Shown: in pieces, positions 1-14,116 of the stretch
How positions within the stretch are numbered: position 1 is the first letter of the stretch
How the letters are laid out: the number at the start of each line of letters is the position of its first letter
From: Planctomycetota bacterium
GTDB lineage: Bacteria; Planctomycetota; Brocadiia; Brocadiales; Brocadiaceae
Reading direction: 5' to 3'
Length of the DNA: 14,116 bases
NCBI GenBank assembly: GCA_016235875.1
Contig: JACRII010000063.1
Coordinates: forward strand, 1 to 14,116
The notes under the pieces: model-generated
Seen by the model: the letters and a program-made list of their open reading frames with translations, nothing else
Told to the model about the DNA's origin: nothing
Databases searched by the model: none
Program-made: the position numbers and the translations under genes

Positions 1-2
1 AT

Positions 3-2027
3 CTATATCTTTAATGCTACTTGAAAACCTTCATGAATAGCCTCAAGTGCCGTGCGTACTTTGACACAATCGCCGATAAAGTATGTCTCCGGGAATTTTC
101 CCTCCACCTGCTTCTGGAGTTCGTTGTTGGGGCTGTATCCTACGGCAACGATAACAGTATCTGCCTTGATAAAGTGTTCCTGACCGTCTTTTTCATACAC
201 CACCCCCCTATGTATTTGTCCGTTTTCGCTGTGGTTGTTTGTAATTTCTTTTACCTTTAGTTCCGTTATTTCTTTTATCCCTGCATCTTTTAGTTCATTG
301 AGGATAACCCATCGTGTGGAAAAACCAAATCCGCCCCCAACCTTTCTTTTCATTTCCAGCAGGGTGATATTCCTGTTCCCCTTCGAGGTATATTCAACAA
401 TATCTTTGGCGTCGAGCACCTTGTGTTTAAGCAGAAAACAGGCTACCTCCGGTCTCATCGCCCCCTGTTTTGCCAAGTACAGCGCCACCTCACACCCAAC
501 CGTTCCACCGCCAATGATGACAACGTCCCTCCCTGTCGTTACTTTCCCTTCCAACACACTACTGGCGATAGAAACATTTTCTCCGTTTATTCCCCGGAGA
601 TTGAGCATTATTGGACGTCCACCTGTGGCTATGATTACTGCATCAGGGTGTTCTTCCTCTAACGTCTGTAAATCTGCCTCTTTTCCCATTTTTATATTTA
701 CGTTGAGTTTTGAAATTTGTCTTTCCAGATACGATATGATATTTTGTATTTCTTCTCGTCCCGGTGGAATAAAGGCGTATCGTAATTGACCACCCAGTTG
801 ATGACTCTTTTCGTACAGCGTCACATTGTGCCCCCTCAATGCCAGGACACGTGCAGCCTCCATGCCACCTGGTCCGCCGCCCACAACCACAATCTTTTTC
901 GAATTATCCGCTTTGGTTATCTTGTATTCACCTTCATGCCCCACCATCGCATTATAAGTGCAGGCTACTGGTTTAAAATTAAGCAGGGAATCAAAACACC
1001 CCTGATTGCAGGCAATACACGTCCTGATATCATCATACTGCCCGTTTTTAAATTTATTCGGCAGTTCGGGATCAACAATCAAAGGTCTACCGATTGACAC
1101 CAGGTCTGCCTGTTCATTATCTAATATTTCTTCTGCTAATTTAAGATTGTTTATCCTCACCGAAGCAATTACGGGAACTGTTACCTGAGATTTAACCTTT
1201 GCAGAAAGATATGCATAAGCCATCCTTGGAATGGACATCAACATAATGGGGGTCTTGCTTTCGTGCCAGCCGGGAGAGACGTTAAAGGCGTCAGCGCCCG
1301 CCTGTTCCAACATTTTAGCAATTTCAATACTTTCATTTATCTTGAGCCCTTCCTCTACGAGATCATCACCTGACATTCTAAAGATGATGGGATAATCCTT
1401 CCCAACAGTTTGTTTTATAGCGAGAACCATTTCCCTTGCAAAACGAGTTCTATTTTCAAGACTTCCACCGTATTCATCGTCGCGCTTGTTCGTTGTCTTA
1501 GAGAGGAACTGATTGATAAGATATCCCATCCCGCCATGAAGCTCGACGGCATCAAAACCTGCTTTCTTCGCCCTTAATGTGGCGCTGACATAATTATCGA
1601 TAACCGTTTTGATCTCTGGAATTGTCAGGGCACGGGGTTCTTGTTTAATGCTTCTATATGTCACTGCAGAGGGTGCGACTGGTTGCATTTTTGTAAAAAA
1701 AGACGAAGCGCTTCTGCCGGCATGAAGGAGTTGAGCAGCCACACGAACGTCATACTGATGGATGGCATCGGTTAATCTTTTTAATCCGGGGATAAATTCA
1801 TCTTTATCCAGCCCAATGATGCTCTTCCAGACCTTACCATTCATCTCAGGATAACAGCCACCAACAACAATAAGACCTACTCCCCCCCTTGCACGCTCAA
1901 TATAAAAGTTGATAATCTGGTCGTTAATGGTGCCATCCGAAGTAAACCCCAGGTCCATGGCAGACATGATTATCCTGTTTTTCAACGTCATCTGGCCGAT
2001 ATTCTTTTTTTCAAATAGTTTGCTCAT
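3..2027 (-). CDS. FadH-like NAD(P)H-dependent 2,4-dienoyl-CoA / enoate reductase family flavoprotein (OYE-type FMN barrel + 4Fe-4S + FAD/NAD(P) domain)
   Basis: Complete 674-aa ORF with its stop codon at 3-5. It has an Old-Yellow-Enzyme-type signature (AVELHGGMGYLINQFLS...NKRDDEYGGSLENRTRF). It has the Cys cluster CIACNQGC-x11-C (C-x2-C-x3-C-x11-C). Two Rossmann glycine motifs follow (KIVVVGGGPGGMEAA and DVVIIGGGTVGCEVA). Length class and domain order match E. coli FadH. Confidence 0.85.
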   Translation of the reverse strand: MSKLFEKKNIGQMTLKNRIIMSAMDLGFTSDGTINDQIINFYIERARGGVGLIVVGGCYPEMNGKVWKSIIGLDKDEFIPGLKRLTDAIHQYDVRVAAQLLHAGRSASSFFTKMQPVAPSAVTYRSIKQEPRALTIPEIKTVIDNYVSATLRAKKAGFDAVELHGGMGYLINQFLSKTTNKRDDEYGGSLENRTRFAREMVLAIKQTVGKDYPIIFRMSGDDLVEEGLKINESIEIAKMLEQAGADAFNVSPGWHESKTPIMLMSIPRMAYAYLSAKVKSQVTVPVIASVRINNLKLAEEILDNEQADLVSIGRPLIVDPELPNKFKNGQYDDIRTCIACNQGCFDSLLNFKPVACTYNAMVGHEGEYKITKADNSKKIVVVGGGPGGMEAARVLALRGHNVTLYEKSHQLGGQLRYAFIPPGREEIQNIISYLERQISKLNVNIKMGKEADLQTLEEEHPDAVIIATGGRPIMLNLRGINGENVSIASSVLEGKVTTGRDVVIIGGGTVGCEVALYLAKQGAMRPEVACFLLKHKVLDAKDIVEYTSKGNRNITLLEMKRKVGGGFGFSTRWVILNELKDAGIKEITELKVKEITNNHSENGQIHRGVVYEKDGQEHFIKADTVIVAVGYSPNNELQKQVEGKFPETYFIGDCVKVRTALEAIHEGFQVALKI

Positions 2028-2043
2028 AGTTTGCCAGGTAATT

Positions 2044-2088
2044 TTTGATTTGATAGTTGATTATGCAAGGTTGATGTGGGGTTGACGA
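2044..2088 (-). promoter_or_regulatory. Cluster of five TTGAT/TTGAC direct repeats just upstream of the FadH-like start codon (possible operator or regulator-binding array)
   Basis: On the plus strand, TTGAT occurs at 2045, 2050, 2057 and 2071, and TTGAC at 2082. All five lie within 42 bp, 18-60 nt upstream of the ATG at 2027. This is far denser than expected for a 5-mer. No binding protein can be assigned. Confidence 0.3.
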
Positions 2089-2156
2089 ATTAAAAGCCAA
2101 GGGGCAAAGGTATAATTCATGCTACGTGGCTTTCAATTGTTTATATTCAAAGAAAC

Positions 2157-2486
2157 TTATTTCCTTAACGCAAAAGATAGGATTGCCCATATTGCAGTAA
2201 TTGTAAAAGTAGAAAAACCCAGGATTAATCCGATCATCCAGTAGATAAGCTCCTTTTTATCTTTTTCCGTCTTTATGAGTAATTCGGTTTTATCACGCTC
2301 TGTCTTTGTTAGTATATCAGTCTTGTCACGCTCTGTCTTCGTGAGTATATCAGTCTTGTCACGTTCAGTCTTTTCATATATCTGGTCGAGCCTTGAGGCA
2401 ATGTAAGTAATCTTTTCTTTGAGGACGTCTTCGTAAAGGGCCTCAAGTCTTGTAATTCTATGTTCTAATTCTTCAATCTCAGGCAT
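2157..2486 (-). CDS. Small coiled-coil protein with 11-aa tandem repeats and a C-terminal transmembrane anchor (function unknown)
   Basis: 109-aa ORF. The N-terminal segment is heptad-like (EIEELEHRITRLEALYEDVLKE). Repeats follow: TERDKTDILTK x2, TERDKTELLIK and TEKDKKELIYW. A hydrophobic tail (WMIGLILGFSTFTITAIWAILSFAL) ends in RK. Confidence 0.7.
   Translation of the reverse strand: MPEIEELEHRITRLEALYEDVLKEKITYIASRLDQIYEKTERDKTDILTKTERDKTDILTKTERDKTELLIKTEKDKKELIYWMIGLILGFSTFTITAIWAILSFALRK
2245..2376 (-). repeat. 33-bp in-frame tandem repeat (4 units, the two central-right units near-identical) inside the 109-aa CDS
   Basis: The units occupy 2245-2277, 2278-2310, 2311-2343 and 2344-2376. 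Units 2311-2343 (agtatatcagtcttgtcacgctctgtcttcgtg) and 2344-2376 (agtatatcagtcttgtcacgttcagtcttttca) share 26 of 33 bases, including the first 21. The outer units are more diverged. Confidence 0.85.
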
Positions 2487-2553
2487 GTTGGGATTATAAG
2501 ACTCAAATCAATGTTTGTCAAGTTTATCCTGGAAACAAACCCATTTCATAGTT

Positions 2554-3135
2554 TCAGCAAGAGTAAATAGAGTAAAAAGCGATTATGCTTGATAAGAGAG
2601 GTAAATTTGGCTCAAATAAAATCTTTTGTTTAATCCGTTGGCAAATTATGCAAAGGCAAATACATCTCATGCCACTCAAAGCCGCCAAGTGTTGATGTTG
2701 ACTTTCCACCGTAGAAAAACCGTATTTTTGATAGTAAGGAACTAAGTTAGATTTACAAATCAAGAGGATCTTCTGCTTTTTTAATGCCTTCGATACCTCA
2801 ATAAATCTTGACATGAGTTTTTTAGAAACTCCATTCCCTTGATATTCAGGCAATACAGCTAAAGAGAAGATGACGATATTTTTCCCGTTTTTCTCATGAC
2901 CCACCATGTCTTTAAATGCCTCGTCCGTTATATCATCCCTGTTTGTTGACCCGCTGTTAATCATACCAACGATCTGACCCTTCAATTCAGCAACCAGAAA
3001 TCCGTCTGGATCCAGTTCAATGCGTTTTTGAATTTTTTCTCTTGTTGCTGCATCAGTAGTATAACAGATAGACTCAATGGTATAACAGGCATCCACATCG
3101 TGCTCATTGACATGCCTAATTATTACATTGGTCAT
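2554..3135 (-). CDS. GNAT-family (arylalkylamine N-acetyltransferase-like) acetyltransferase with a frameshifted 3' end; the intact reading would end at 2630
   Basis: GNAT core is present: FLVAELKGQIVGMIN, IFSLAVLPEYQGNGVSKKLMSRF, LLICKSNLVPYYQKYGF. After YGF the annotated frame gives a Cys-rich, low-plausibility tail. The neighbouring frame reads FYGGKSTSTLGGFEWHEMYLPLHNLPTD-stop, a typical GNAT C-terminus. The switch sits at the homopolymer 2715-2719. Confidence 0.85.
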   Translation of the reverse strand: MTNVIIRHVNEHDVDACYTIESICYTTDAATREKIQKRIELDPDGFLVAELKGQIVGMINSGSTNRDDITDEAFKDMVGHEKNGKNIVIFSLAVLPEYQGNGVSKKLMSRFIEVSKALKKQKILLICKSNLVPYYQKYGFSTVESQHQHLAALSGMRCICLCIICQRIKQKILFEPNLPLLSSIIAFYSIYSC

Positions 3136-3240
3136 GAGATAATTTTTTGTGTCGATAATTTAATCGTATAGGAATTTTCATTTTGTTTAAGCGGTTTTCG
3201 TGTCCATAACTAATATGGTAAATAGTCTATGGAAGACCTC

Positions 3241-3282
3241 CCCTTCATCCCCTCCTTGCGAAGGAGGGGAAAGAGGGGTGGT
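3241..3282. repeat. GC-rich palindromic hairpin element (REP-like), copy 1
   Basis: cccctcctt-gcg-aaggagggg forms a perfect 9-bp stem with a 3-nt loop (3249-3269). It is preceded by cccttcat and followed by aaagaggggtgg. It lies 30 nt downstream of the FapA stop. It shares the ccccttcaYcccc lead-in with the element at 9925-9990. Confidence 0.6.
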
Positions 3283-3298
3283 TATAAGTTCTGAACAT

Positions 3299-4699
3299 TC
3301 ATTTTTTTATTTTTATCTCATCTCCTGTCAAATAGAATGTTGCCTTTTTACATTCCTCAAGAATGGTCATGGTTGATTCGCCGATTTTAATCTCTACTCC
3401 CGGATGAACAACTTTATGGACTAATACCTTAGCATCCTTATTAACCGATACTATTTCTTCGCTCGCGAGGTCATTTAATTTTTTTACTAACTCTTCCCTT
3501 CGGGAAAGGAGGCGATCAAATGTAGTTGTGTACTGTGGTGGAAGTTCTCCCTTTGCCTTCTGAATTGCATGGAGTGTATTAAGTTCCTTATCAACCGTTT
3601 TCAAGAGAGCTTTTAAACCACTTGTCTCTTTTCTTTTGATCATTTGACTTTGTTGTGCAGCGTAGTTAGTACCGACTTCTACGTCTGTGTGAACCTCATT
3701 ATTACTTCCCAAAGATTCGACTTCAATCATTGCTCCAGCAGTTGTTATTCCACCCTCGATAGATATCTTATCCCCACTTACTTTCACGGCATTTTTAGCA
3801 TAGATTGTACAACCCACTGCCTCTCGTAATATTATTACATTAGTTGCCACAATTGTCTGATTCCTGGCAAAGCCGATGGTTGCATCTCCTTCTGCTTCAA
3901 TTTTCCCTTTACCCGAACCAATAAAACCGCCCTTTATCAAAACGTTGCCCTTTGACTTTATTATAGAATCTTCTACCGTACCCCAAACCTCCACATCTCC
4001 TATAGCATCTAAAATAAACCCGCTTCTTACGTTTCCCTTGACGACAACCGTCCCTTTGCTTGTGATATTCCCTGTACTAAAATCAACGTCTTTTTCAACG
4101 GTACAACAAGATTTTACAGATACGGCGCCATTGGTGTATCTTACGTTTCCGTCAATAGAGGAAACCAACAATTTGGAATCCTTCTCAGATACCCTGGTAT
4201 TTTCACCCATCGGGAGTACGCATGGTTTCCCATGAACAGGGATCAACGTTTTTCCAAATACGTTTTTCCCGGGCTTCCCGAGAGTAGGGTCTATTAATTT
4301 TACCAGGGGTCGATTCTTTTCAACGTTCTCAATAATACTCACCTCGTGAAAATCAACCTTGCCATGAGCGCCCTCCTGAGGCTTGATTTTTTTATCAACG
4401 TCAAACAGAAACTCAAGCCTGCCGTTTTCACCAAAAACCGTTTGGTCTCCTTCCGCTATAAGTACATCTTCAACAGCGCTGTCTTTTAATCTGGCTTTAT
4501 CCAGGGTAGCCCCGATAACCTCTTCCTTTATTCCATAGGAAATTTTTTTCGACTGCAGGATTTGCAGCACGTCATTCACGTTGATATCAACACCCCCTTG
4601 CGTAAAGGGTTTTACCGTTAAATAGACCTTCATAAGGTCGTCAGAGACCTTGACTAAAAGGAAGTTGGTTTTGTCATTCGTTTCCGACATATTTTTCAC
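3299..4699 (-). CDS. FapA / DUF342 family protein
   Basis: 466-aa ORF. The N-terminus (LLVKVSDDLMKVYLTVKP...VLQILQSKKISYGIKEEVI) is typical of the FapA N-domain. The centre has repetitive beta-helix-like G-x-V/I segments. A coiled-coil segment follows, then the C-terminal VVHPGVEIKIGES motif. The track start is GTG at 4699. ATG at 4690, preceded by GGTGA, is the more likely start. Confidence 0.8.
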   Translation of the reverse strand: MKNMSETNDKTNFLLVKVSDDLMKVYLTVKPFTQGGVDINVNDVLQILQSKKISYGIKEEVIGATLDKARLKDSAVEDVLIAEGDQTVFGENGRLEFLFDVDKKIKPQEGAHGKVDFHEVSIIENVEKNRPLVKLIDPTLGKPGKNVFGKTLIPVHGKPCVLPMGENTRVSEKDSKLLVSSIDGNVRYTNGAVSVKSCCTVEKDVDFSTGNITSKGTVVVKGNVRSGFILDAIGDVEVWGTVEDSIIKSKGNVLIKGGFIGSGKGKIEAEGDATIGFARNQTIVATNVIILREAVGCTIYAKNAVKVSGDKISIEGGITTAGAMIEVESLGSNNEVHTDVEVGTNYAAQQSQMIKRKETSGLKALLKTVDKELNTLHAIQKAKGELPPQYTTTFDRLLSRREELVKKLNDLASEEIVSVNKDAKVLVHKVVHPGVEIKIGESTMTILEECKKATFYLTGDEIKIKK

Positions 4700-4765
4700 C
4701 GTTTATTTAACGTTGTTGAACTAATGCTAAACAAAAAGACAAGTTTTCGGCATTATTTAAAATAT

Positions 4766-4781
4766 ATCAAATTCTGTGCCA
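4766..4781 (-). promoter_or_regulatory. Candidate sigma54-type (-24/-12) promoter upstream of the FapA gene
   Basis: The minus strand reads TGGCACAGAATTTGAT, against the consensus TGGCACG-N4-TTGCW. The -24 GG and the spacing are exact. The -12 element is TTGA instead of TTGC. It lies about 75 nt upstream of the ATG at 4690. Confidence 0.3.
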
Positions 4782-4850
4782 AAAGAGCAGCAAGAAGATT
4801 TACCGCGTAGTCGTTGATGAAGTAGAGACACAGGCAAAAAGGCGGTACGT

Positions 4851-4954
4851 AACCACAGATTTCTCTGATTACACAGACGATTAGGTTTTCTTCGTTTCTT
4901 GAGTTTTTCGTGTTTCTTGCGTTAACGATATAAACCCAAGAAACCTAACGAACC
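4851..4954. repeat. Short-repeat debris (AACCACAGATT / CACRGAT family plus an imperfect inverted repeat)
   Basis: aaccacagatt at 4851 recurs at 8286 (aaccacggatt) and 8363. The sequence ttaggttttcttcg...cgttaggtttcttggg (reverse complement) forms an imperfect inverted repeat. No ORF is present. Confidence 0.45.
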
Positions 4955-4970
4955 TTTAATAATATTAATC

Positions 4971-5130
4971 GGGGCTGTCCAAAATTTATTACCATGCGAA
5001 GGTGGAACGACTAAAGCAATCTCCTGATTTTAAAGGGTTTCAAAATGGATTGCTTCCCCTTTGCGATTCTCAGGGCTTCGGCTCACAACACTTGCGATGA
5101 CAGTTGAAAATTAAACTATTTGGACAGACC
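4971..5130. mobile_element. MITE-like non-coding element bounded by 9-bp terminal inverted repeats
   Basis: ctgtccaaa (4975-4983) is the exact reverse complement of tttggacag (5119-5127). The arms enclose about 135 bp with no ORF. The flanks are ggggctgtcc and ggacagaccc. No transposase is present. Whether this is a repeat family in the genome cannot be tested from one window. Confidence 0.4.
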
Positions 5131-5287
5131 CAGGTAAATCAAGCAATTGTTGCAGGACGTCTTCTTTACCGTTGCTTATGAAAGCGAGAAATTCTTTTTG
5201 GTCAAGTTTAGCAATTTGTACAACGTTACGCCTCAGTTTCATTTTGCCGCCCTGCAAAAACGTAAACTGCAGGCGCTGGTTGGGCAT
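5111..5287 (-). CDS. 58-aa ORF (MPNQRLQFTFLQGGKMKLRRNVVQIAKLDQKEFLAFISNGKEDVLQQLLDLPGSVQIV), possibly a gene remnant
   Basis: Found by hand translation; it falls below the size cutoff of the ORF track. The ATG at 5287 is 11 nt after the stop of the upstream gene, with no clear SD. The last codons and the stop are supplied by the right arm of the MITE-like element. Confidence 0.25.
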   Translation of the reverse strand: MPNQRLQFTFLQGGKMKLRRNVVQIAKLDQKEFLAFISNGKEDVLQQLLDLPGSVQIV

Positions 5288-5298
5288 TTCTGTTTTGT

Positions 5299-6033
5299 TT
5301 AGCTCACAGCTTTTCCGATCAAGCAGTCCACGCCGCCGACAATGACCGGTCCATATAGCGTTCCTGTGATGACTGGCTCATGAGAACCAATGATGACAGC
5401 CATGAAGGCATTGAAGTCCTTTGTATTTGCGCGGATATTGTCTGTCGTCGTCTTGCGTGTGTGAAACTCATGCACCACGAACACCGCAAGAGCAGAACCG
5501 TCTCGCCAGGCTTGGATTGCAGTGCCGCAAATTGCCGTAAGGAGTTGGTATCTGACGTTATCCCATCGGTTGTTCCCTGCGGGAACGAGGGAAAGCAGTT
5601 GAGTGATTCTTTCTGGCACTCTGGTTGATTCACCAGATTCTCTGCGTTTGTTGGCTAACAGTCTGTACTCCGCGACAGTTTCGTTCCCGAAAGGTTCGTC
5701 TGCCTTTGCTTCGATACAGATTGTGATTTGTTCCTGATTAGTCCGGCCGAGTAGCCAAAGGTCATGGTTACGTCCTTCGCCTCTTTCAGGAAGTGAAGTC
5801 ACGTATTCGGGAATCCCGCGCAAGAGATGTAGATCTGTGAGCCTCCTTGAAGAATGCAGTAGTTGTATCAGTTCCTCTGGCGGTGATATCTCGGATTGAC
5901 GGAACCAAGCCTTCGCCAGTTCCATTGCGCTTCTTTCGGGTTCCCACTGGTAATCCTTTTTCGGTCGGGTCCACATTTCCCAGTTTGTGATGGGTGTGCC
6001 GTCTGGCCGCGATAGAGTCAGTGGTGTTGTCAT
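5299..6033 (-). CDS. PD-(D/E)xK nuclease-fold protein, uncharacterised family (resembles my recollection of the DUF6946-type N-terminus)
   Basis: 244-aa ORF with a strong SD (AAGGAG 7 nt before the ATG at 6033). The motif series is E76 (IPEYV), D91 (RNHDLWLL) and E108-A-K110 (ITICIEAKADEPFG). That is D-x16-ExK on predicted beta strands. The N-terminus is Trp-rich (W-x2-W-x8-W...RSAMELAKAW). GC is about 50%, against about 42% for the window. Confidence 0.55.
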   Translation of the reverse strand: MTTPLTLSRPDGTPITNWEMWTRPKKDYQWEPERSAMELAKAWFRQSEISPPEELIQLLHSSRRLTDLHLLRGIPEYVTSLPERGEGRNHDLWLLGRTNQEQITICIEAKADEPFGNETVAEYRLLANKRRESGESTRVPERITQLLSLVPAGNNRWDNVRYQLLTAICGTAIQAWRDGSALAVFVVHEFHTRKTTTDNIRANTKDFNAFMAVIIGSHEPVITGTLYGPVIVGGVDCLIGKAVS

Positions 6034-6134
6034 ATTTGTTCTCCTTGCCCAACGCCTGAGCTAAGGGGCGCGAGGTAACCATGTCAGACTGATAAAGAAA
6101 ACCGGCTAATCCCGCGTCCCTCTTGAGCGATTTG

Positions 6135-6965
6135 TTAGGCTTTCTTAAAATATGGAAAGACTGATGACATATGTATTGTTGTTTCATTTATGACCTGGGC
6201 TGCATAACAGTCTTCCCATCCATCTGCATCAAATATCTCGTTGAATTTATAATTGTGATATTCGGCTATCCAACGGTACTTTTCAAGTATTCTTATGTTC
6301 TTAAGATTCTTGTTCACGTTTTCGATAATTGATTCTTTATGGTCATGTAAGAATTCTATCTGTTCCATTCCGTCCTCATAAAGCATATTCAAATAATCGA
6401 CAAAGAAATAGCCATCGGGAGATTCCATTATGAAATTTAGATTATTCTTTTTCTCAAAGGGATTTTGTTCATTAATAATTTGCTCAACAAGAGTGCTGTC
6501 AACAATAATTCGTGGATACATTGCAACTTGCTCTAATTCATATGCTTTTATTAATCCCTGACTAAATACCATTCTTTCATTTTCAAAGTGACAACCATGT
6601 GACAAAGCCCCTCTCAAAAACATTTTCCTTAATGAAAAGTAGAGTTGTATAAAGGCTAACTCATACAAAATATAAAAGATGTTCTCTTTAGAATATTCGC
6701 ATGATACGCAAATACAATCAGAAAATAGTTTAGTTGAGAATGTCTTGCCATAATTATCATTAAGCACATTCAAAACATGCTTCAGGTGACCATCAATATA
6801 ATTTATTGTTTGTAACGCTCCTTCTCTACCCTGCATTACCAAATCTTTAAAACCAAGGATGTCTATGAAAGCGACGAGTTTATCTGGATAATTTGATTCA
6901 TTATATGAATTTACCATATACTGCCCGCTCACTAATGTATTATTGAAATACTTTAAGTCTAACAT
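6135..6965 (-). CDS. Minimal class III nucleotidyl cyclase-like (palm-domain) protein with a C-terminal helical extension; function unknown
   Basis: 276-aa ORF. VAFIDILGFKDLV matches the F-x-D-x-x-GF first metal-Asp strand (D35). KLFSDCICVS supplies the second Asp 48 residues later (D83). LRGALSHG...GLIKAYELE is in the position of the RIGIHTG...VN-AARLE segment. GC is about 32% (hand count over 13 lines). Confidence 0.5.
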   Translation of the reverse strand: MLDLKYFNNTLVSGQYMVNSYNESNYPDKLVAFIDILGFKDLVMQGREGALQTINYIDGHLKHVLNVLNDNYGKTFSTKLFSDCICVSCEYSKENIFYILYELAFIQLYFSLRKMFLRGALSHGCHFENERMVFSQGLIKAYELEQVAMYPRIIVDSTLVEQIINEQNPFEKKNNLNFIMESPDGYFFVDYLNMLYEDGMEQIEFLHDHKESIIENVNKNLKNIRILEKYRWIAEYHNYKFNEIFDADGWEDCYAAQVINETTIHMSSVFPYFKKA

Positions 6966-7041
6966 TTACTTTTATCTTTATTCTATAATTACCAATAAGT
7001 TATTTATGATATTTCAGATAAAACACTCAATAAGCATTACA

Positions 7042-8277
7042 TTATTTGCTGAACTTATTTATCACCAAACATGAATTATTTCCATCATAATCCATGGTAT
7101 TTATCAACACATTCTGGATTTCTTTTTTGAGGGGCTTTTCTATGATTAAATTCAGATTTATTTCTGGGTCCTTGTTGCTGTGATTGATGATGTGGGGTAT
7201 GAAACCTGTATTGATGGACATGACCGTAGAAATGAACTGTGCTGCGCCTGAAGCGCCGTAAGACTCCCCCACATTCGATTTGATTGCAGAGACTGGAATT
7301 TGACTGCATCCTGTGCCAAAATAAGATTGGATTGCCTTCGCCTCGACTTTATCCTGCATCTTGCATCCGTTTGCATTTGCACTGATGAGACCAACATCTT
7401 CTTTCTTAACTCCTGCACCTGTCAGGGCATCATGCATGGCTTTTTCGACACGTCGCACTCTTATGTCTTCCGGGTGTTTCTTGCCTCCTACAAATGTGCT
7501 TCCAAAGCCTCTTATTTCGGCATAAATGTGAGCACCCCGGTCTAATGCGTGTTGGAGTTCTTCAAGAATAATTACGTAACTGCCTTCTGACATGACAAAT
7601 CCGTTTCTTGTTTTATCAAAGGGCAGGCTTTCCTCTTTTACACCGTCTAGGCCGGACAGAAGGCCACGTAAATAAAATATCAGAAATAAATCAATGGAAA
7701 TCTGCTCTACCCCCCCTGCCAAGATTATCTTTGCCATACCTCTTTGAATCATTTTATAGGCATCCCCAAGGGCATCGGTACTTGACGTGAAACCAGCAGA
7801 AATAGTGCGCGCAAGTCCCTTGATTTTAAAGATGACCGATACGTAGTTAATTGACGAATTCAAGGCAACGTCGTAACTGAGCATGGGTGATAGTTCGGAT
7901 GGATTATTCCGGATAATTTCATAGAAATAGTCTGTCGTCTCAGAAAAATTGCCCAGAGACGAGCCTATGATAATCCCCATCTGATTCGACAACGACCCGT
8001 CCTGCGGCAGTTTTGCATCGTCCAACGCCATCTTAGAGGCAGACCCCAAAAACCGTGTGCCTTTGTTTAAATATTTTAAACCTTTGCTGCCGAGGTACAC
8101 TTCGGGTTTAAGGTCTCTGACCTCACCGCCCAGTTTGCATTTGTAAGGAGAGAGGTCGAGAGAAATCATGGGTGCGATGCCTGACTTTCCCTCAATGAGA
8201 TTATTCCAGAACGCCTCTTTGCCGCAGCCAAGAGGGGAGACAACTCCTATACCGGTAATAACGACTCTCTTTTTCAT
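7042..8277 (-). CDS. Ketosynthase-fold protein lacking the Cys-His-His triad (chain-length-factor / KS-beta-like partner)
   Basis: 411-aa ORF, alignable along its length to the KS at 8443-9654 (MKKRVVITGIGVVSPLG...). The active-site Cys position reads ISAGFTSS (Phe163, codon 7789-7791). The HGTGT position reads ANANGC. The GH-x-x-GA position reads GESYGASGA. Confidence 0.85.
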   Translation of the reverse strand: MKKRVVITGIGVVSPLGCGKEAFWNNLIEGKSGIAPMISLDLSPYKCKLGGEVRDLKPEVYLGSKGLKYLNKGTRFLGSASKMALDDAKLPQDGSLSNQMGIIIGSSLGNFSETTDYFYEIIRNNPSELSPMLSYDVALNSSINYVSVIFKIKGLARTISAGFTSSTDALGDAYKMIQRGMAKIILAGGVEQISIDLFLIFYLRGLLSGLDGVKEESLPFDKTRNGFVMSEGSYVIILEELQHALDRGAHIYAEIRGFGSTFVGGKKHPEDIRVRRVEKAMHDALTGAGVKKEDVGLISANANGCKMQDKVEAKAIQSYFGTGCSQIPVSAIKSNVGESYGASGAAQFISTVMSINTGFIPHIINHSNKDPEINLNLIIEKPLKKEIQNVLINTMDYDGNNSCLVINKFSK

Positions 8278-8280
8278 ATA

Positions 8281-8442
8281 CTTTTAACCACGGATTAACA
8301 CGGATGTACACAGATATAAAACATTATAACTCACCGCAAAGACGCAAAGTGCGCGAAGAATTAACCACAGATTACTACACACAAACACGGCTAAAGACGT
8401 AAATGATGGGTTCACTTCGCCCTTCGCACACTCAGGACAGGC
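8281..8442. repeat. Intergenic short-repeat debris (CACRGAT heptamers, AACCACRGATT x2, GC-rich tail)
   Basis: aaccacggatt is at 8286 and aaccacagatt at 8363. CACRGAT occurs at 8289, 8299, 8309 and 8366. The sequences ctcaccgcaaagacgcaaagtgcgcgaag and gggttcacttcgcccttcgcacactcaggacaggc resemble dispersed junk repeats seen in many uncultured-bacterium genomes. No ORF is present. Confidence 0.5.
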
Positions 8443-9654
8443 TTAACCCATCCTACTGAATATCGTGGTGGCGTTATTGCCGCCAAATGCGAATGAATTA
8501 TTGAGCACATGGCTTATTTTTAATTCTCGCGCCTTATTCGGTATATAATCAAGGTCACATTCCGGGTCGGGCGTTTCGTAATTGATTGTTGGAGGCGCTA
8601 TTCCATGCCTCAGTACCAGACAGCAGATGACCGATTCTACGGCGCTTGCTGCGCCCATAAGGTGACCAATCATGGATTTTGTGGAACTGCAAGGAATTTT
8701 ATAGGCACGTTCACCAAAGACGCGTTTTATGGCGGTGGTTTCTGTTTTGTCATTATGGGGAGTTCCTGTACCATGTGCGTTGATGTAACCAATGTCTGCT
8801 TGAGAAAGGGTTGCCATTTTTAATGCATCACTCATGCATTTTACAGCACCATCTCCTTCGGGATGTGGCGCAGTCATGTGGAATCCATCGCAACTCAGCC
8901 CGTAACCCGCCATTTCAGCAATAATCTGTGCCCCTCGTTTTTTCGCAAATTCATAGCGTTCCATGATCAATATTCCAGCCCCCTCGCCAATCATGAGGCC
9001 CTGGCGGTTTTTATCAAAGGGCTGGCAGCGTTCAGGCGCTAAGGCCTTGAGGTTGTGAAAGTGGGTAAATTCCGTTTGGGGAATCATGTCGCCACCCCCT
9101 ACCATCATCACGTCCACCTTGTTTTCCATAAGAAGCTCACACGCCCAGGCAATGGCGTGATTGCCAGACGAGCAGGCATTCAGCGAGATCATGGTTGGAC
9201 CTTCAAAATCAAAATATTGAGCCAGGATGTTTGTGATAGAATTGGGAGGATAAACGGCTGCAACGATTTTATCAAAACCGTTATCTTTTCTAGAAGTATC
9301 TAACCTCAGAAGCCTTTCAAAAGGCGTCAATTCGGCTGCTAATGTTCCCATGGCGATACCGAATCGCTCTTTATCGAAATTATTATCATTTAGTAAACCG
9401 CTTTCTTGCAGCGCCTCTCTAGCTGCATAGTAAACATATTTATGGATGGTGTTTTCCTTGATCTGGTTTTCCAATTCAAAATCCCACTGGAAATTCTTTA
9501 CCTCGCAGGAACGATGCACCTTGTATTTTGAGGTATCGAATGACTTCATCTCATTGGTGCCGTTCCTGCCCTGGATGAACGATTCCCAGCTTTGTTTGAC
9601 ACCGATTCCAACGGGTGTGACCAATCCCAATCCTGTAATTACGACCTTTGACAT
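8443..9654 (-). CDS. Beta-ketoacyl-ACP synthase, FabF/KAS II family, catalytically intact
   Basis: 403-aa ORF. Cys161 lies in ISLNACSSGN (codon 9172-9174 verified). His294 lies in INAHGTGTPHND. His331 lies in STKSMIGHLMGAASA. The C-terminus is the typical NSFAFGGNNATTIF. Confidence 0.9.
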   Translation of the reverse strand: MSKVVITGLGLVTPVGIGVKQSWESFIQGRNGTNEMKSFDTSKYKVHRSCEVKNFQWDFELENQIKENTIHKYVYYAAREALQESGLLNDNNFDKERFGIAMGTLAAELTPFERLLRLDTSRKDNGFDKIVAAVYPPNSITNILAQYFDFEGPTMISLNACSSGNHAIAWACELLMENKVDVMMVGGGDMIPQTEFTHFHNLKALAPERCQPFDKNRQGLMIGEGAGILIMERYEFAKKRGAQIIAEMAGYGLSCDGFHMTAPHPEGDGAVKCMSDALKMATLSQADIGYINAHGTGTPHNDKTETTAIKRVFGERAYKIPCSSTKSMIGHLMGAASAVESVICCLVLRHGIAPPTINYETPDPECDLDYIPNKARELKISHVLNNSFAFGGNNATTIFSRMG

Positions 9655-9677
9655 AGTGTTCGTTTTTTAAGTTATTA

Positions 9678-9766
9678 GTAGGGTGGATTAAGGCGTTGGT
9701 TTTTGCGCCGAATCCACCAAACTATTTCCAGGAAAGGTGGATTCGCACTTGCTTAATCCACCCTAC
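9678..9766. repeat. Nested inverted-repeat element carrying four GGTGGATT cores in + - + - order
   Basis: The outer arms gtagggtggattaag (9678-9692) and cttaatccaccctac (9752-9766) are perfect 15-bp complements. The inner arms cgaatccacc (9709-9718) and ggtggattcg (9736-9745) are perfect 10-bp complements around a 17-nt loop. Confidence 0.8.
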
Positions 9767-9814
9767 GCAAAACCGCATGAACAAAATGAAAATTCCTGAG
9801 CATTAAAACAAGAG

Positions 9815-9853
9815 AGGTCAACTATTCACCTTTCAATGCGAATAAGTTGACCT
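9815..9853. repeat. 9-bp inverted repeat (aggtcaact ... agttgacct) with a 21-nt loop
   Basis: 9815-9823 is the exact reverse complement of 9845-9853. It lies in the spacer between the radical SAM gene and the KS gene. Confidence 0.5.
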
Positions 9854-9924
9854 ACGATGATCAAACCACAAACGTTGAATTAGGCCTTTGGTGACTTATA
9901 CATACACATTTTCGCAACAGATGT

Positions 9925-9990
9925 CCACCCCCTTCACCCCCGCCAGCGGGGGACAGATGGTTGTCCCTCTCAGTGAGGGGGATTAAGAGG
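9925..9990. repeat. GC-rich hairpin element (REP-like), copy 2, with two short hairpins
   Basis: cccccg-ccag-cggggg spans 9937-9952 and ccctc-tcagt-gaggg spans 9965-9979. The lead-in ccacccccttcaccccc resembles the lead-in of the 3241-3282 element. It starts about 35 nt downstream of the radical SAM stop. Confidence 0.55.
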
Positions 9991-10024
9991 GAGGCGCGTT
10001 TGTTTGAAATTCCTAAACATTAAA

Positions 10025-11503
10025 TTATGATGATACCTCAACCGGCTTCAATTCAATCTTTTTTCCGGATGTTTCCATTTGACTGTGTCGTTTTAATGCC
10101 TCATCGTAAACCCCTGATGCTTGCAGTTCTTTTAAATTTTGAATCAAGTGTTGATAGACACTCTGCCAGTCCAGGTTTACTCTGAATGCAAACATGGCGG
10201 CATTCATGTTATCTTTATGTACTTCTTTTGCATTCTGGAATCTTTGCCGTAATACTTCTGTAGAGTAAATTTTGTCGTATAAATATTGGAAGCCATCAAT
10301 AAGTTCCTGGAGAGACATGTTTTTAAGGACGTAGGTTAGGTGATGAGACGTGTAATACTTCCAATCTTCAGGGAAGTCTGTCCTGAAAAGTCTTCCATCT
10401 CCGTTCAGTCTGTGATACAGCGGTGTATTGATGAATGGACATAGGATACCGCAGGTCATAATATCAACGTGCGAATCCAGGACGAAATCAGCAACCTGTT
10501 TAAAGGTTTCAGGGGTATCGGCATCGTTCCCAAAGACCATCGTCCCCCAAACAGCGAGACCGTGTTTACGTATATTGGCAATGGCCTCAAAATAATTCTC
10601 AATCGAGATGCGCAGGTTTACATTTTTATTCATCGTTTTCAGGGCTTCTTCATTGATGGATTCGATCCCAATTAATACCCCGACACACCCGCTCTTCTTC
10701 ATATATTCAAGGGTTTCGTCGTCCTGATAGATATTGAGAGATGTAAAACCGAACCAGTTTTGGTAAATTCCTCTTTCAACCATTCCCTTAAAAAGGTCTC
10801 GGACACGCTCATTGGATTTTTTGCTATGCCCATAAAAATTTTCATCCGTTAATATCAAACCGCGATATTGACCTTTGATGGATTCAAACTCATCAAGGAC
10901 ATCTTCAATCGGCCTTTCACGATATTTCCTGCCCTGGAACTGAGGCACTGAGCAGAACTCACAGCTAAATGGGCAACCCGCGGTTGTTATAATACCTGAA
11001 TACCGGTATTTATATTTATCCTTTAAATATTTCCTATCAGGACGCAATCCCTGATATAACTCCATCGGTGTCAGGACACCATCGTATCTTTTTTGGAGAC
11101 AGCCATTTTCAAAATCGCTAATAATCTTTTCCCATGTGGTTACGGCTTCTCTGGTCACGACACAATCCACGTATTTTGCCGCCTCTTCAGGATAACTGGT
11201 GACATGAATGCCGCCCATAATCACAGGTATACCCCGTTTTTTACAGGCAATTGCTATTTGATATGCACGATGTGCCTGATAACTCACCGATGTAATGCCA
11301 ACAAGGTCGGCTTCACCAAAGGTAATATTTCCTGTATCGTCAATCGCAAGCCCCTGGGTTTCATCTATAATATCAACCTGCCAGTGTTTTGGCGTTAATA
11401 CCTTTAGATATCCGAGATTTACAGGCATTTGATTTAATACAGAGACGTTTTCCTCGCCAACATTTCCAATCGGATGCGGGTTAATTAGTACGAGCTTTTT
11501 CAT
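10025..11503 (-). CDS. B12-binding domain-containing (class B) radical SAM enzyme
   Basis: 492-aa ORF. The N-terminus is a cobalamin-binding-type Rossmann segment (DLVGITSVSYQAHRAYQIAIACKKRGIPVIMGGIHVTSYPEEA). The CxxxCxxC motif is AGCPFSCEFCSV (Cys177/181/184, codons 10952-10975 verified). A long C-terminal extension is typical of this class. Confidence 0.9.
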   Translation of the reverse strand: MKKLVLINPHPIGNVGEENVSVLNQMPVNLGYLKVLTPKHWQVDIIDETQGLAIDDTGNITFGEADLVGITSVSYQAHRAYQIAIACKKRGIPVIMGGIHVTSYPEEAAKYVDCVVTREAVTTWEKIISDFENGCLQKRYDGVLTPMELYQGLRPDRKYLKDKYKYRYSGIITTAGCPFSCEFCSVPQFQGRKYRERPIEDVLDEFESIKGQYRGLILTDENFYGHSKKSNERVRDLFKGMVERGIYQNWFGFTSLNIYQDDETLEYMKKSGCVGVLIGIESINEEALKTMNKNVNLRISIENYFEAIANIRKHGLAVWGTMVFGNDADTPETFKQVADFVLDSHVDIMTCGILCPFINTPLYHRLNGDGRLFRTDFPEDWKYYTSHHLTYVLKNMSLQELIDGFQYLYDKIYSTEVLRQRFQNAKEVHKDNMNAAMFAFRVNLDWQSVYQHLIQNLKELQASGVYDEALKRHSQMETSGKKIELKPVEVSS

Positions 11504-11886
11504 GAATGTTCCTCATATTTTGGTACCAAAAGTACCTGTGCAATGGCATAATCCTGGCAATGTGATAATGATACTGCGATATCGCTAATATGTTTCCTGT
11601 CTGCCAATTCTTTTACACTTCCATAAAGATTCACGTAGGGCCTGCCATTTTCGTCGTTTAACAGTTCGATATCCGTCCATTTCATTTTACCAACCCAACC
11701 AGTTCCCAAGGCCTTGAACATGGCCTCTTTTGTAGCAAAGCGAGCTGCAAAATGCTGATATTTGTTTTTCTTTGGTTTACAATATTCAACCTCTTTTTCC
11801 GTGTAAATTTTTTTAAGAAAACCCTCATTGGCAGAAAACAATCTCTCAATGCGTTTTATTTCAATAATATCAATTCCAACATACAT
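11500..11886 (-). CDS. acpS: Holo-[acyl-carrier-protein] synthase (AcpS-type 4'-phosphopantetheinyl transferase)
   Basis: 128-aa ORF with GIDIIEIKRI, FAARFATKEAMFKALGTG and AVSLSHCQDYAIAQVLL, at the length typical of AcpS. Its TGA overlaps the radical SAM ATG in the sequence ATGA (11500-11503). Confidence 0.9.
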   Translation of the reverse strand: MYVGIDIIEIKRIERLFSANEGFLKKIYTEKEVEYCKPKKNKYQHFAARFATKEAMFKALGTGWVGKMKWTDIELLNDENGRPYVNLYGSVKELADRKHISDIAVSLSHCQDYAIAQVLLVPKYEEHS

Positions 11887-11958
11887 AAATATTTTGTTTT
11901 ACCTTCATGATCGTATTAAATACTTATAATGCAAGTATCTGTCATCACGACAGTTGGC

Positions 11959-11987
11959 ATTTTACAGATTTACAAAATTAATGTCAA
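11959..11987 (-). promoter_or_regulatory. Near-consensus sigma70-type promoter for the acpS-radical SAM(-KS) transcription unit
   Basis: The minus strand reads TTGACA (11987-11982), a 17-nt spacer, then TAAAAT (11964-11959). The -10 element lies about 72 nt upstream of the acpS ATG. This is the first intergenic gap over 300 bp upstream of the cassette. Confidence 0.5.
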
Positions 11988-12208
11988 TGACATTTTCCTG
12001 TGGAACAAAGCAAAATAAGTTGAATTGAATAATTGTATGTGGGCTGCTTATTTCAAATATACAGAAGATACTTACTCTGTGATTTGATCACATGGAGTGT
12101 AGAAAAAATTGAGTATCCGTGATTAAAAGTATTTTTTATGAGAGGGGGAGGAGGGTGCTCCACCTCAAGAAGAGATGAAACACCCAGCTCTGTGTTGGAA
12201 ATTTTACT

Positions 12209-12457
12209 TCAAAGTTTTTTATTCTTTTGGCTGTATTTTCTACCAATGTCTGCTGCTATATCATACCCTGATTTTTTAAAACATGACAGACATTCAATAT
12301 AATTATCGTTTTCCCGCAAACTGGGTAAAACCCCAGTTTCAAATGTACGTATCCCTAGTTCAGGAGATTGTTCTACAATTTGGAAGCTACTTGAGAATAT
12401 TCTAAATTTTTTAATATCACCACAGTTTGGACATGCCAAGAATATGTTTCCGTTCAT
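12209..12457 (-). CDS. Small 4-Cys zinc-ribbon protein, function unknown
   Basis: 82-aa ORF with CPNC (Cys9/12) and CLSC (Cys56/59). The C-terminus is basic. It is the last gene of the co-directional HD-GYP gene string. Confidence 0.55.
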   Translation of the reverse strand: MNGNIFLACPNCGDIKKFRIFSSSFQIVEQSPELGIRTFETGVLPSLRENDNYIECLSCFKKSGYDIAADIGRKYSQKNKKL

Positions 12458-12518
12458 AATATTGGGTCATTACTCCATAGTAATTTTGTTACCTTTTGGT
12501 AAATTTGTTAGTATTTTA

Positions 12519-12887
12519 TCACTGGATAAGGGTTTGTTCTGTTTCGAATTCGAATACGGTTTTAAATTCGTTAAAGAAGTAAGCCTCGCCGTAGCCGGAC
12601 ACATTCGAACCAGATAACGGAGTCCATGCAACGTAAATGGATTTTCCCATATTCAATTGTTCTGTAACTGCTTCATATTGGTGAACTGGGGCATAGAAAT
12701 GTATCTTCTCTTCCGAAAAGATTGCATCAGGTCTGCAAAAGTTTTCCTCCGCAAAATAGGCTGATGCGACATGATTTTCCCCAGAATACAGATCGATTAC
12801 TTTAGTTGCTTCTATTATTAAATCATGTTTATCGCTTGGACATTCTCGTAGGATATAGGTATCAATTCTGTGTGTTATAAATTCCAT
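12519..12887 (-). CDS. Hypothetical protein (122 aa), no recognisable motif
   Basis: Clean ORF beginning 23 nt after the preceding gene. Its composition matches its neighbours. I recognise no motif. Confidence 0.55.
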   Translation of the reverse strand: MEFITHRIDTYILRECPSDKHDLIIEATKVIDLYSGENHVASAYFAEENFCRPDAIFSEEKIHFYAPVHQYEAVTEQLNMGKSIYVAWTPLSGSNVSGYGEAYFFNEFKTVFEFETEQTLIQ

Positions 12888-12910
12888 CAGTAACTTTCAC
12901 CTTTTCATAA

Positions 12911-13234
12911 TTATAATAAATTTAACCCTACTTTTTTTAATTCCTGACGACGCTCCAGAATGCTAAAATATATAGATGGCCAGGATCTCTTTGCATAGAT
13001 AATAGGTATTCCTTTATTGCCGGCAATTTTTTTTATCTTGTACGCCAGATTATGATTTACGAAATCATAAAGGAGAATAATAAAGTCGGCATTATCAGGC
13101 ATTTTTCCGCGAATTTTCTGTCCACTCCTGCCGTTTAAGTGCTGAATTTTCGAGATACCAATTCTGTCAAGTTCCTTTGGAATGCACCCAAGATGATCCG
13201 CCCCAACAATTATTACTGACATTTTATAATTCAT
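12911..13234 (-). CDS. DUF2325-like small protein
   Basis: 107-aa ORF. MSVIIVGADHLGCIPKEL...ADFIILLYDFVNHNLAYKIKKIAGNKGIPIIYAKRSWPS matches the pattern I recall for DUF2325: VLIVGG..lG, then D-F-V-S-H, then a basic helix, then 'P.v...rS.S'. The true start may be the ATG at 13222. Confidence 0.7.
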   Translation of the reverse strand: MNYKMSVIIVGADHLGCIPKELDRIGISKIQHLNGRSGQKIRGKMPDNADFIILLYDFVNHNLAYKIKKIAGNKGIPIIYAKRSWPSIYFSILERRQELKKVGLNLL

Positions 13235-13243
13235 TTAATTAAT

Positions 13244-14116
13244 TTAAACACCTATTAAAACGTCCTCGAATATCTTTAGATTAGCAGTACACAATCTATC
13301 GTCAAATTTAAATCCTTTTTCATTGAAAACAACCAAACAAGCGTACACTACATTAAAATCGTAAAGAATGCCCCTGTTTCGTGAAATTTCATCCAATACC
13401 TTGTCCAAACCAAGCGCTGGTCTATACGGGTGAGGAGACTGCATCGCATCAATAACGTCAGCCACGCCTAGAATTTTTGCTTCCAGGAGAATATCCTTTC
13501 CTGATAAACCTGAAGGATACCCGGAACCGTCAATCCTCTCATGGTGTTGGAGTACGATTTGAGCAACAGGAAGTGGAAATTCTATTTCATTTAATATATC
13601 ATAACCAAGACATGGATGAGTCTTAATCATATTAAATTCATCCTCTGAAAGCTGGTCTAATTTATTTAGAATCTCAGCAGGTATTGAAATTTTGCCAATA
13701 TCGTGAAGAGTAGCGGCTATACTGACTCCTTCAATCCTGTCTTTTGGCAGGCCCATCTCCTCAGCTATGCAGCGAGCAAGTTTAGCCACTCGTTTCTGAT
13801 GTCCTATTGAATAAGAATCTTTCGATTCGATGGCTACTGATAACGTCTGTACGATTCCTCTCATAGATTTTTGTAACTTCTTAACACTTTGTTTAAACTC
13901 TTCTTCCAGTCGTATGCGATTGTTAATTTCCTCCATCAATTCTTCGTTTACCCCCACTAACTTAGCCGTATGTTCAACCACACGTTTTTCTAAAGATTTG
14001 TTAAGCAGCCTCAGTCCTTCTTCAATTTGTTTGCGAGCGGTAATGTCCCTCGCTATCCCCGTAATACCAACTACATGTCCCTTCTCATTTCTCAATGGAA
14101 AATTTTTGTATTCACA
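13244..14116 (-). CDS. PAS-domain / HD-GYP domain protein (putative c-di-GMP phosphodiesterase), N-terminus outside the window
   Basis: The reading frame stays open to the window edge (CEYKNFPLRNEKGHVVGITGIARDITARKQ, the end of a PAS domain). The track's 'M' at 14095 is a TTG. After a coiled-coil linker come HD-GYP signatures: ATLHDIGKISIP and HHERIDGSGYPSGL. Confidence 0.9.
   Translation of the reverse strand, partial: CEYKNFPLRNEKGHVVGITGIARDITARKQIEEGLRLLNKSLEKRVVEHTAKLVGVNEELMEEINNRIRLEEEFKQSVKKLQKSMRGIVQTLSVAIESKDSYSIGHQKRVAKLARCIAEEMGLPKDRIEGVSIAATLHDIGKISIPAEILNKLDQLSEDEFNMIKTHPCLGYDILNEIEFPLPVAQIVLQHHERIDGSGYPSGLSGKDILLEAKILGVADVIDAMQSPHPYRPALGLDKVLDEISRNRGILYDFNVVYACLVVFNEKGFKFDDRLCTANLKIFEDVLIGV

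Follow-up and report, generated by a model that had tools for sequence, protein, structure and literature searches.

A putative chain-length-factor-like partner of a neighbouring ketosynthase in an anammox gene cluster

The window analysed here is a stretch of 14,116 nt from a Planctomycetota bacterium of the family Brocadiaceae (GenBank assembly GCA_016235875.1, contig JACRII010000063.1, positions 1 to 14,116). It carries two neighbouring genes for ketosynthase (KS) homologues, which we named KS1 and KS2, and KS2 has lost all three catalytic residues (a dead triad). We found that KS2 has orthologues in 38 anammox loci, where it occurs in a conserved gene order and is under purifying selection, and that the KS1/KS2 pair is paralogous to a solved heterodimer, the amxFabF2:amxFabFmut pair of Cluster I. 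KS2 is probably a non-catalytic subunit, resembling a chain-length factor (CLF), of an obligate heterodimer with KS1; this is the pair known as Kuste2804/Kuste2805 in Kuenenia stuttgartiensis and is a paralogous duplicate of the Cluster I pair, a pair assigned to ladderane synthesis. The formation of the heterodimer, the role of KS2 in its acyl tunnel and the pathway served are predicted from the comparisons given below.

The replaced triad of KS2 and its conservation

The two genes and the codons of the replaced residues are located as follows.

7042..8277, minus strand: KS2, a 411-amino-acid FabF-fold protein with the dead triad F163/N301/E338 (open reading frame, Pfam PF00109 and PF02801, alignment, AlphaFold 2 model)
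8443..9654, minus strand: KS1, a 403-amino-acid FabF-like ketosynthase with the triad C161/H294/H331 intact (Pfam, alignment, match to 9s5h_B)
7789..7791, minus strand: codon TTC of Phe163, at the catalytic Cys position of KS2 (codon checked)
7375..7377, minus strand: codon AAT of Asn301, at the first catalytic His position of KS2 (codon checked)
7264..7266, minus strand: codon GAG of Glu338, at the second catalytic His position of KS2 (codon checked)

Each of the two proteins contains both Pfam ketosynthase domains (PF00109, PF02801), and BLASTP aligned them over their full length with 29% identity (E = 4e-53). In this alignment C161 of KS1 pairs with F163 of KS2 (NACSSG with SAGFTSS), H294 with N301 (NAHGTG with SANANG) and H331 with E338 (IGHLMG with VGESYG), and the alignments of KS2 to Bacillus subtilis FabF and to chain C of PDB entry 9S5H showed an identical triad register. 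The replacements of Cys by Phe, His by Asn and His by Glu, which a first-pass annotation had read from the DNA, are borne out by the alignment, the residue numbers and the codons. That annotation had also described an identical register from the nucleophile position to the downstream GG motif; the register is indeed the same in the two proteins, with a distance of 25 residues (C161 to G186 in KS1, F163 to G188 in KS2).

An AlphaFold 2 model of KS2 built from 52 diverse sequences reached a predicted local distance difference test score (pLDDT) of 94.7; an earlier input of 14 close orthologues, a shallow alignment, had given an unusable model with a pLDDT of 35. The model superposed on B. subtilis FabF with a template modelling (TM) score of 0.95 and a root mean square deviation of 1.9 Å over 415 alignment columns, that is, with nearly all residues. 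B. subtilis FabF was also the top Foldseek match of the model, because the PDB library used ends on 2026-04-08 and is without 9S5H. KS2 scored below both FabF cut-offs of NCBIfam (315.5 bits against 493.75, and 314.8 against 387), and its F/N/E triad, in place of Cys-His-His, also sets it outside FabF.

A genome scan with KS2, in which each species was represented by a single genome, yielded 38 anammox loci and one unrelated match at 34% identity; the 38 loci and the window form the set of 39 sequences used throughout. The closest orthologue was found in Ca. Wunengus (90% identity); those of Brocadia, Jettenia, Loosdrechtia and Kuenenia came next, and identities in Scalinduaceae went as low as 60%. 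The named homologues at 76-92% identity were all from Candidatus Brocadia, Jettenia or unclassified Brocadiaceae/Planctomycetota. The results showed that F163, K333, E338 and Q347 are invariant in 39 of 39 sequences. Residue 301 is Asn in 37 of them and His in the other two, both from Brocadiaceae (loci L016 and L018, with the pattern F/H/E); thus the first His position tolerates Asn and His. KS1 kept its Cys-His-His in 32 of 32 sequences.

The loss of three catalytic residues and an identity to KS1 as low as that given above are what would be expected if KS2 were a decaying pseudogene copy of KS1. However, the 411-codon frame is unbroken in all 38 anammox loci, pairwise dN/dS values against eight relatives were 0.04-0.08 for KS2 (0.03-0.06 for KS1), the replacement residues stay conserved down to 60% overall identity, and the protein is modelled with high confidence. 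The first-pass annotation had named random substitutions among orthologues as the sign of decay, and these were not seen. Since Phe and Glu are present in all sequences and Asn in 37, under strong purifying selection, comparison of the sequences indicates that the substitutions are maintained by selection and not left by decay; the pseudogene explanation is refuted, and we give it a negligible chance. Cys305, which lies in the loop equivalent to HGTGT, was considered as a relocated nucleophile and rejected: it is C, S or G among the orthologues and thus is not a conserved catalytic residue.

The window cluster, which comprises acpS, the gene of a B12-binding radical S-adenosylmethionine (rSAM) enzyme, KS1 and KS2, is the orthologue of K. 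stuttgartiensis kuste2802-2805, described as acpS (kuste2802), B12 rSAM (kuste2803), fabF (kuste2804) and 'non-canonical fabB' (kuste2805) (PMC2649909; PMC4790861). The residues tabulated for Kuste2805 at FabB positions by Rattray et al. in 2009 (their Table 2) are Phe163, Asn298, Asn300, Cys302, Lys328, Glu333, Gln342 and Phe392 (PMC2649909). The corresponding residues of KS2 are F163, N301, N303, C305, K333, E338, Q347 and Y397, identical at seven of the eight positions, and the exception is Phe392, replaced by Tyr397 in KS2. The comparison with Kuste2805 was made through this published residue table, and the syntenic orthologue of Ca. Kuenenia hertensis (locus L027, 72% identical) served as a proxy. 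KS2 agrees with the Kuste2805 group in residue pattern, in gene order (acpS, B12 rSAM, fabF, dead KS) and in its occurrence in anammox bacteria (Brocadiales); the window differs in its species, in a 165-bp spacer between KS1 and KS2 and in a FadH-like gene that lies 5 kb off. The F/N/E observation is therefore not new, having been published for Kuste2805 in 2009, 17 years ahead of the 2026 preprint on the Cluster I pair.

Kinship to a solved heterodimer and proposed role of KS2

The best PDB sequence matches were 9s5h_C for KS2 (E = 1.5e-88) and 9s5h_B for KS1 (E = 2.3e-123, 415 bits), and these chains are amxFabFmut and amxFabF2 of Brocadia fulgida, respectively (Granatino et al., bioRxiv 2026, 10.64898/2026.05.19.726425). 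In a neighbour-joining tree KS2 and amxFabFmut formed one clade and KS1 and amxFabF2 another, each with a bootstrap of 100/100. The identity to the Cluster I paralogue is 39% for KS2 and 47% for KS1. On this sequence evidence KS1 is the paralogue of amxFabF2 and KS2 that of amxFabFmut, and the topology of the tree indicates that both members of the KS/dead-KS pair were duplicated together, earlier than the split between Scalinduaceae and Brocadiaceae. K. stuttgartiensis has both KS/dead-KS pairs (PMC2649909).

Co-purification, crosslinking and crystal structures have established amxFabF2:amxFabFmut as a KS/CLF-like heterodimer, and its decarboxylation of malonyl-acyl carrier protein (ACP), formation of acetoacetyl-ACP and crosslinking by probes were observed only with the pair (10.64898/2026.05.19.726425). 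Residues F135 and V139 of amxFabFmut line the tunnel and tune the chain-length preference, F135/T138/V139 narrow the tunnel near C8 of the substrate, and ACP touches both subunits (10.64898/2026.05.19.726425). This structural work concerns the Cluster I pair only, and the kuste2804/2805 pair goes unmentioned in the preprint (10.64898/2026.05.19.726425).

An exhaustive profile-free search was run against 1.8 billion representatives, and the top 150 of the nearest 50%-identity representatives were examined. About 30 of these are fusions of about 800 amino acids, in which an N-terminal Cys-His-His KS is followed by a C-terminal dead KS. The fusions have the gene order of the window, which provides a Rosetta-stone argument for an interaction of KS1 with KS2. 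Together with the subunit-for-subunit pairing of the PDB matches and of the tree clades, and with the overlap or abutment of the two genes in five loci, they support the heterodimer. The first-pass annotation had suggested a structural or chain-gating subunit working with KS1, and this idea gains support from the clade that KS2 forms with amxFabFmut and from the solved paralogous heterodimer. Given this kinship, KS2 is best read as a second non-catalytic partner subunit. A proxy score that was also tried (KS1 0, KS2 -4, both B. fulgida subunits -3) failed its positive control and was dropped as uninformative.

In the mechanism that we propose, KS2 would perform neither condensation nor decarboxylation, and KS1 would require it to fold to the active form. 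The helix-loop-helix of KS2 (about residues 110-140) would close and line the acyl tunnel that starts from Cys161 of KS1, and KS2 would contribute part of the ACP docking surface. Phe163 would fill the dead nucleophile site, while Glu338 and the retained Lys333 would probably stabilise the dead pocket. The KS1 and KS2 genes would be cotranscribed with those of acpS, the B12 rSAM enzyme and, ancestrally, the FadH-like reductase, and the product would be an anammox-specific lipid, most likely a ladderane. The stretch within this helix-loop-helix that would bear on chain length is encoded at the following position.

7864..7878, minus strand: S134-Y-D-V137-A138, helix-loop-helix motif of KS2 (ungapped alignment to 9s5h_C)

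Residues S134, V137 and A138 align without gaps with F135, T138 and V139 of amxFabFmut and are invariant in 39 of 39 sequences, and 'FTV' is the common state at these tunnel positions in other dead partners. From this difference a wider or longer tunnel is predicted, and a substrate other than the C6-C8 of Cluster I; with Ser134/Val137/Ala138 in place of the constricting Phe/Thr/Val, the pair would accept a longer or bulkier acyl chain. As judged from the aligned residues, the difference in tunnel lining from the characterised paralogue may be new.

Several points weigh against the proposed heterodimer and its role. It is modelled on paralogues of limited identity (39% for KS2, 47% for KS1), and no ACP gene was found in the cluster by open reading frame and family search. 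In several genomes, that of the window among them, KS1 and KS2 lie 165 bp to 4.4 kb apart, so that coupled translation is not essential. When kuste2802-2805 were synthesised and expressed in Escherichia coli in 2016, the protein was insoluble and no new lipid was formed (PMC4790861); the link to ladderanes is a putative one for all of these genes. In these constructs kuste2804 and kuste2805 were placed on different operons (PMC4790861), and co-expression of KS1 with KS2 might cure the insolubility. Finally, the invariance of Glu338, Lys333 and Gln347 could reflect a residual chemical function.

The last point leads to an alternative in which KS2 is an enzyme of other chemistry, whose Glu338/Lys333/Asn301 pocket catalyses a non-Claisen step, e.g. 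the recruitment or coupling of a pre-made (ladderane) moiety onto ACP. Such a role would fit the invariant residues and the frequency of Glu in related domains (49 of 74, see below), as well as the proposal of Rattray et al. that non-canonical FabF/FabB paralogues bring products not made by type II fatty acid synthesis into the pathway (PMC2649909); moreover, the dead subunit of the solved paralogue keeps a tunnel of its own, with polyethylene glycol bound (10.64898/2026.05.19.726425). However, the pocket has no nucleophile, the only Cys near it being the variable Cys305, and its first His position accepts Asn or His. In addition, amxFabFmut alone showed neither activity nor crosslinking to the acyl-ACP probe, and the authors of the preprint explicitly reject the coupling proposal (10.64898/2026.05.19.726425). 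We therefore regard other chemistry as improbable.

It is also conceivable that KS2 acts without KS1. It might form a homodimer, pair with another ketosynthase (e.g. amxFabF2 or the housekeeping FabF), sequester ACP or serve in regulation. The amxFabFmut of S. brodae crystallises as a homodimer, although with its dimerisation motif disordered (10.64898/2026.05.19.726425), and long insertions uncouple KS1 and KS2 in some genomes. Against this, KS1 precedes KS2 wherever upstream sequence is available, including the five loci with overlapping or abutting genes, and both the subunit-for-subunit paralogy and the natural KS-dead-KS fusions point to the cognate neighbour as the partner. An independent role for KS2 thus seems very unlikely, and a heterodimer with KS1 is the reading that we retain.

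Both KS pairs were found in a single array on one metagenomic contig of 56% GC content, L042:1-12202 (Logan SRR13254584 contig 18761; also L041). Its order begins with a FabZ/ApeI-like gene, an amxFabF2-like gene (64% identity), an amxFabFmut-like gene (57%, with the triad E/G/E) and an amine-oxidase/phytoene-desaturase-like gene. Three genes for B12 rSAM enzymes come next, and then one gene resembling KS1 (58%), one resembling KS2 (45%, with the triad F/A/E) and an enoyl-CoA hydratase gene. The array links the two KS pairs to a single pathway, and the occurrence of both on one contig may be new. One speculative scheme is that two orthogonal KS/dead-KS heterodimers share the work of making ladderane lipids. 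The Cluster I pair would make the short linear C6-C8 part; the window pair, with a tunnel widened by Ser134/Val137/Ala138, would accept or elongate an intermediate that is bulky, cyclised or polyunsaturated and that the cotranscribed B12 rSAM enzyme and FadH-like reductase help to make; and L042 would be a complete or ancestral ladderane-type cluster, possibly from outside the known anammox genera. We put this forward tentatively and consider it unlikely to hold as a whole.

Gene order and spacers of the cluster

The remaining features of the cluster are listed below; acpS, the rSAM gene, KS1, KS2 and the FadH-like gene all lie on the minus strand of the window.

11959..11987, minus strand: sigma-70-like promoter match TTGACA-17-TAAAAT, 11/12, upstream of acpS (consensus match only)
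11500..11886, minus strand: AcpS holo-ACP synthase, orthologue of Kuste2802 (Pfam PF01648, NCBIfam)
10025..11503, minus strand: B12-binding rSAM enzyme, orthologue of Kuste2803 (Pfam PF02310, PF04055 and DUF4070, synteny)
8278..8442, minus strand: KS1-KS2 spacer of 165 bp with weak internal repeats (consensus scan, BLASTN, repeat search)
3..2027, minus strand: FadH/OYE/BaiCD-type Fe-S flavoenzyme of 674 amino acids, enoate/dienoyl reductase family (NCBIfam)

The order AcpS, B12 rSAM, KS1, KS2 is kept across Brocadiaceae and Scalinduaceae, in all loci with upstream DNA available. In the window the stop codon of acpS overlaps the start of the rSAM gene (ATGA). By consensus matching, the promoter-like site upstream of acpS is the cluster's sole strong match on the coding strand, and neither promoter-like nor terminator-like sites were found by such matching on the coding strand of the KS1-KS2 spacer. 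In L033 (Scalinduaceae) and L038 (Brocadia) the stop of KS1 lies in a 4-bp overlap with the start of KS2, and in L016, L018 and L031 the two genes abut; in the other loci the gap is 13 bp to 4453 bp (overall range, -4 to 4453 bp). As the tight coupling occurs in both families, it is probably ancestral, and the 165-bp spacer is a lineage-specific expansion, of which there are many among the loci. The first-pass annotation was thus exact in describing an uncoupled gap of 165 bp in the window, but the gap is not general.

Its description of the spacer as repeat debris is weakly supported by short repeats, namely one 11-nt direct pair and one 11-nt inverted pair in the interior and an 18-nt inverted match to 12115-12132, 3.8 kb away. 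BLASTN, however, found no multi-copy element: only orthologous spacers of related loci matched, and the spacer was accordingly rejected as a dispersed repeat or miniature inverted-repeat transposable element. The longest insertion was observed in a Brocadiaceae metagenome-assembled genome (L017:3548-8000), where a 4.4-kb defence island with genes for a NotI-like restriction endonuclease, a D12 N6-adenine methyltransferase and an AIPR protein stands between KS1 and KS2. Across the loci, insertions recur in the KS1-KS2 spacer.

The 370-bp spacer between the rSAM gene and KS1 contains a 22-nt inverted repeat pair with GGTGGATTAAG-type arms and a segment of 29 nt that recurs in inverted form 6.6 kb off (window 9671-9797 and 3170-3198), and the presence of pieces of it at non-orthologous sites in L029 and L005 suggests a small dispersed element. 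No open reading frame of at least 30 amino acids was found on the coding strand of 9655-10024. Just upstream of acpS, an open reading frame of 82 amino acids (12209-12457, minus strand) encodes two CxxC pairs (CPNC ... CLSC) and is conserved in many anammox loci with 56-87% identity; a search of it for an ACP signature and for Pfam or NCBIfam matches gave none.

The B12 rSAM enzyme scored 81 bits against NCBIfam TIGR04072 'rSAM_ladder_B12', which has a cut-off of 360, and so belongs to a different family from that curated for lipid/ladderane clusters. The FadH-like gene is the immediate downstream neighbour of KS2 in Scalinduaceae (L031-L035, L040), Jettenia (L019), L036 and L024, and it is probably a displaced fifth, ancestral gene of the cluster; the window has about 5 kb, occupied by apparently unrelated genes, between it and KS2. 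This interval (2157-6965, minus strand) holds a 276-amino-acid open reading frame without family match, genes for a DUF6946 protein and FapA, a GNAT-like open reading frame of 193 amino acids and one of 109 amino acids with TERDKTD repeats. The DUF6946 gene is in a stretch of locally raised GC content (about 48%, compared with about 35% on either side), and related genomes have differing subsets of these genes.

Comparison with known chain-length factors and dead ketosynthases

Among the nearest representatives examined, 74 domains are without the Cys-His-His triad. Phe is the commonest residue at their Cys position (21 of 74); I, G, C, Y, M and E are among the other residues there, and Q occurs in three; Glu occupies the second His position in 49, and five have the exact F/N/E combination. 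One dead-KS relative from outside the anammox bacteria was found in a metagenome-assembled genome of Blastocatellia (Acidobacteriota). The first-pass annotation had regarded Phe/Asn/Glu as a different solution from that of classical chain-length factors. This claim of novelty is not supported, because the substitutions had already been published for Kuste2805 and the Phe/Glu pocket is common; the distribution suggests instead that CLF-like partners with a Phe/x/Glu pocket are widespread in clusters resembling those of fatty acid synthases (FAS).

How ladderanes are made is a long-standing question, in which no step has been reconstituted and the anammox bacteria are not genetically manipulable (10.64898/2026.05.19.726425). 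The sequence observation on KS2 repeats the publication of 2009; the value of the present analysis is that it draws attention, within the unsolved ladderane problem, to a second KS/CLF-like pair that is uncharacterised. If a second such heterodimer with a differently shaped tunnel does exist, it would be a concrete and expressible target.

The aryl-polyene CLF ApeC and Iga12, the CLF of the highly reducing type II polyketide synthase (PKS) for ishigamide, are non-catalytic partners of FabF-like ketosynthases in fatty-acid-like reducing systems. ApeC is half-sized (PMC8358021), whereas KS2 has 411 amino acids with both PF00109 and PF02801 and so falls outside the ApeC type. Iga12 was absent from the 60 best PDB sequence matches of KS2, among which its partner Iga11 (6kxd_A) was present.

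The classical CLF (KSbeta; actinorhodin CLF, PDB 1TQY chain B) is likewise a KS homologue without activity; it joins an active KS in a heterodimer and gives the acyl tunnel its shape, and its gene is adjacent to that of the KS, as are those of KS1 and KS2. The type II PKS chain-length factor of this class (act CLF) has Gln at the Cys position, where KS2 has Phe163. KS2 is also nearer to FabF than to KSbeta (E = 7e-73 with B. subtilis FabF against 2e-44 with act CLF, 1tqy_B), and it stands in a FAS-like lipid cluster, while the classical CLF stands in an aromatic polyketide cluster.

Besides Kuste2805, amxFabFmut (KustE3606/Broful02170; PDB 9S5H/9S5I) is among the closest known systems. Both it and KS2 have the full FabF fold with a dead triad, carry Asn and Glu at the His positions, retain the Lys and Gln and are encoded beside a partner with an intact triad. 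They differ at the Cys position, which is Val in amxFabFmut (Thr in Scalindua) and Phe in KS2, at the tunnel residues (F/T/V against S/V/A) and at a residue of the gate region (Arg against Tyr). The clusters differ as well: that of amxFabFmut contains amxACP, amxFabZ, a phytoene-desaturase-like gene and a different rSAM gene, whereas the window cluster has acpS and the B12 rSAM gene and is without the first three, as befits a paralogue and not an orthologue of the Cluster I subunit.

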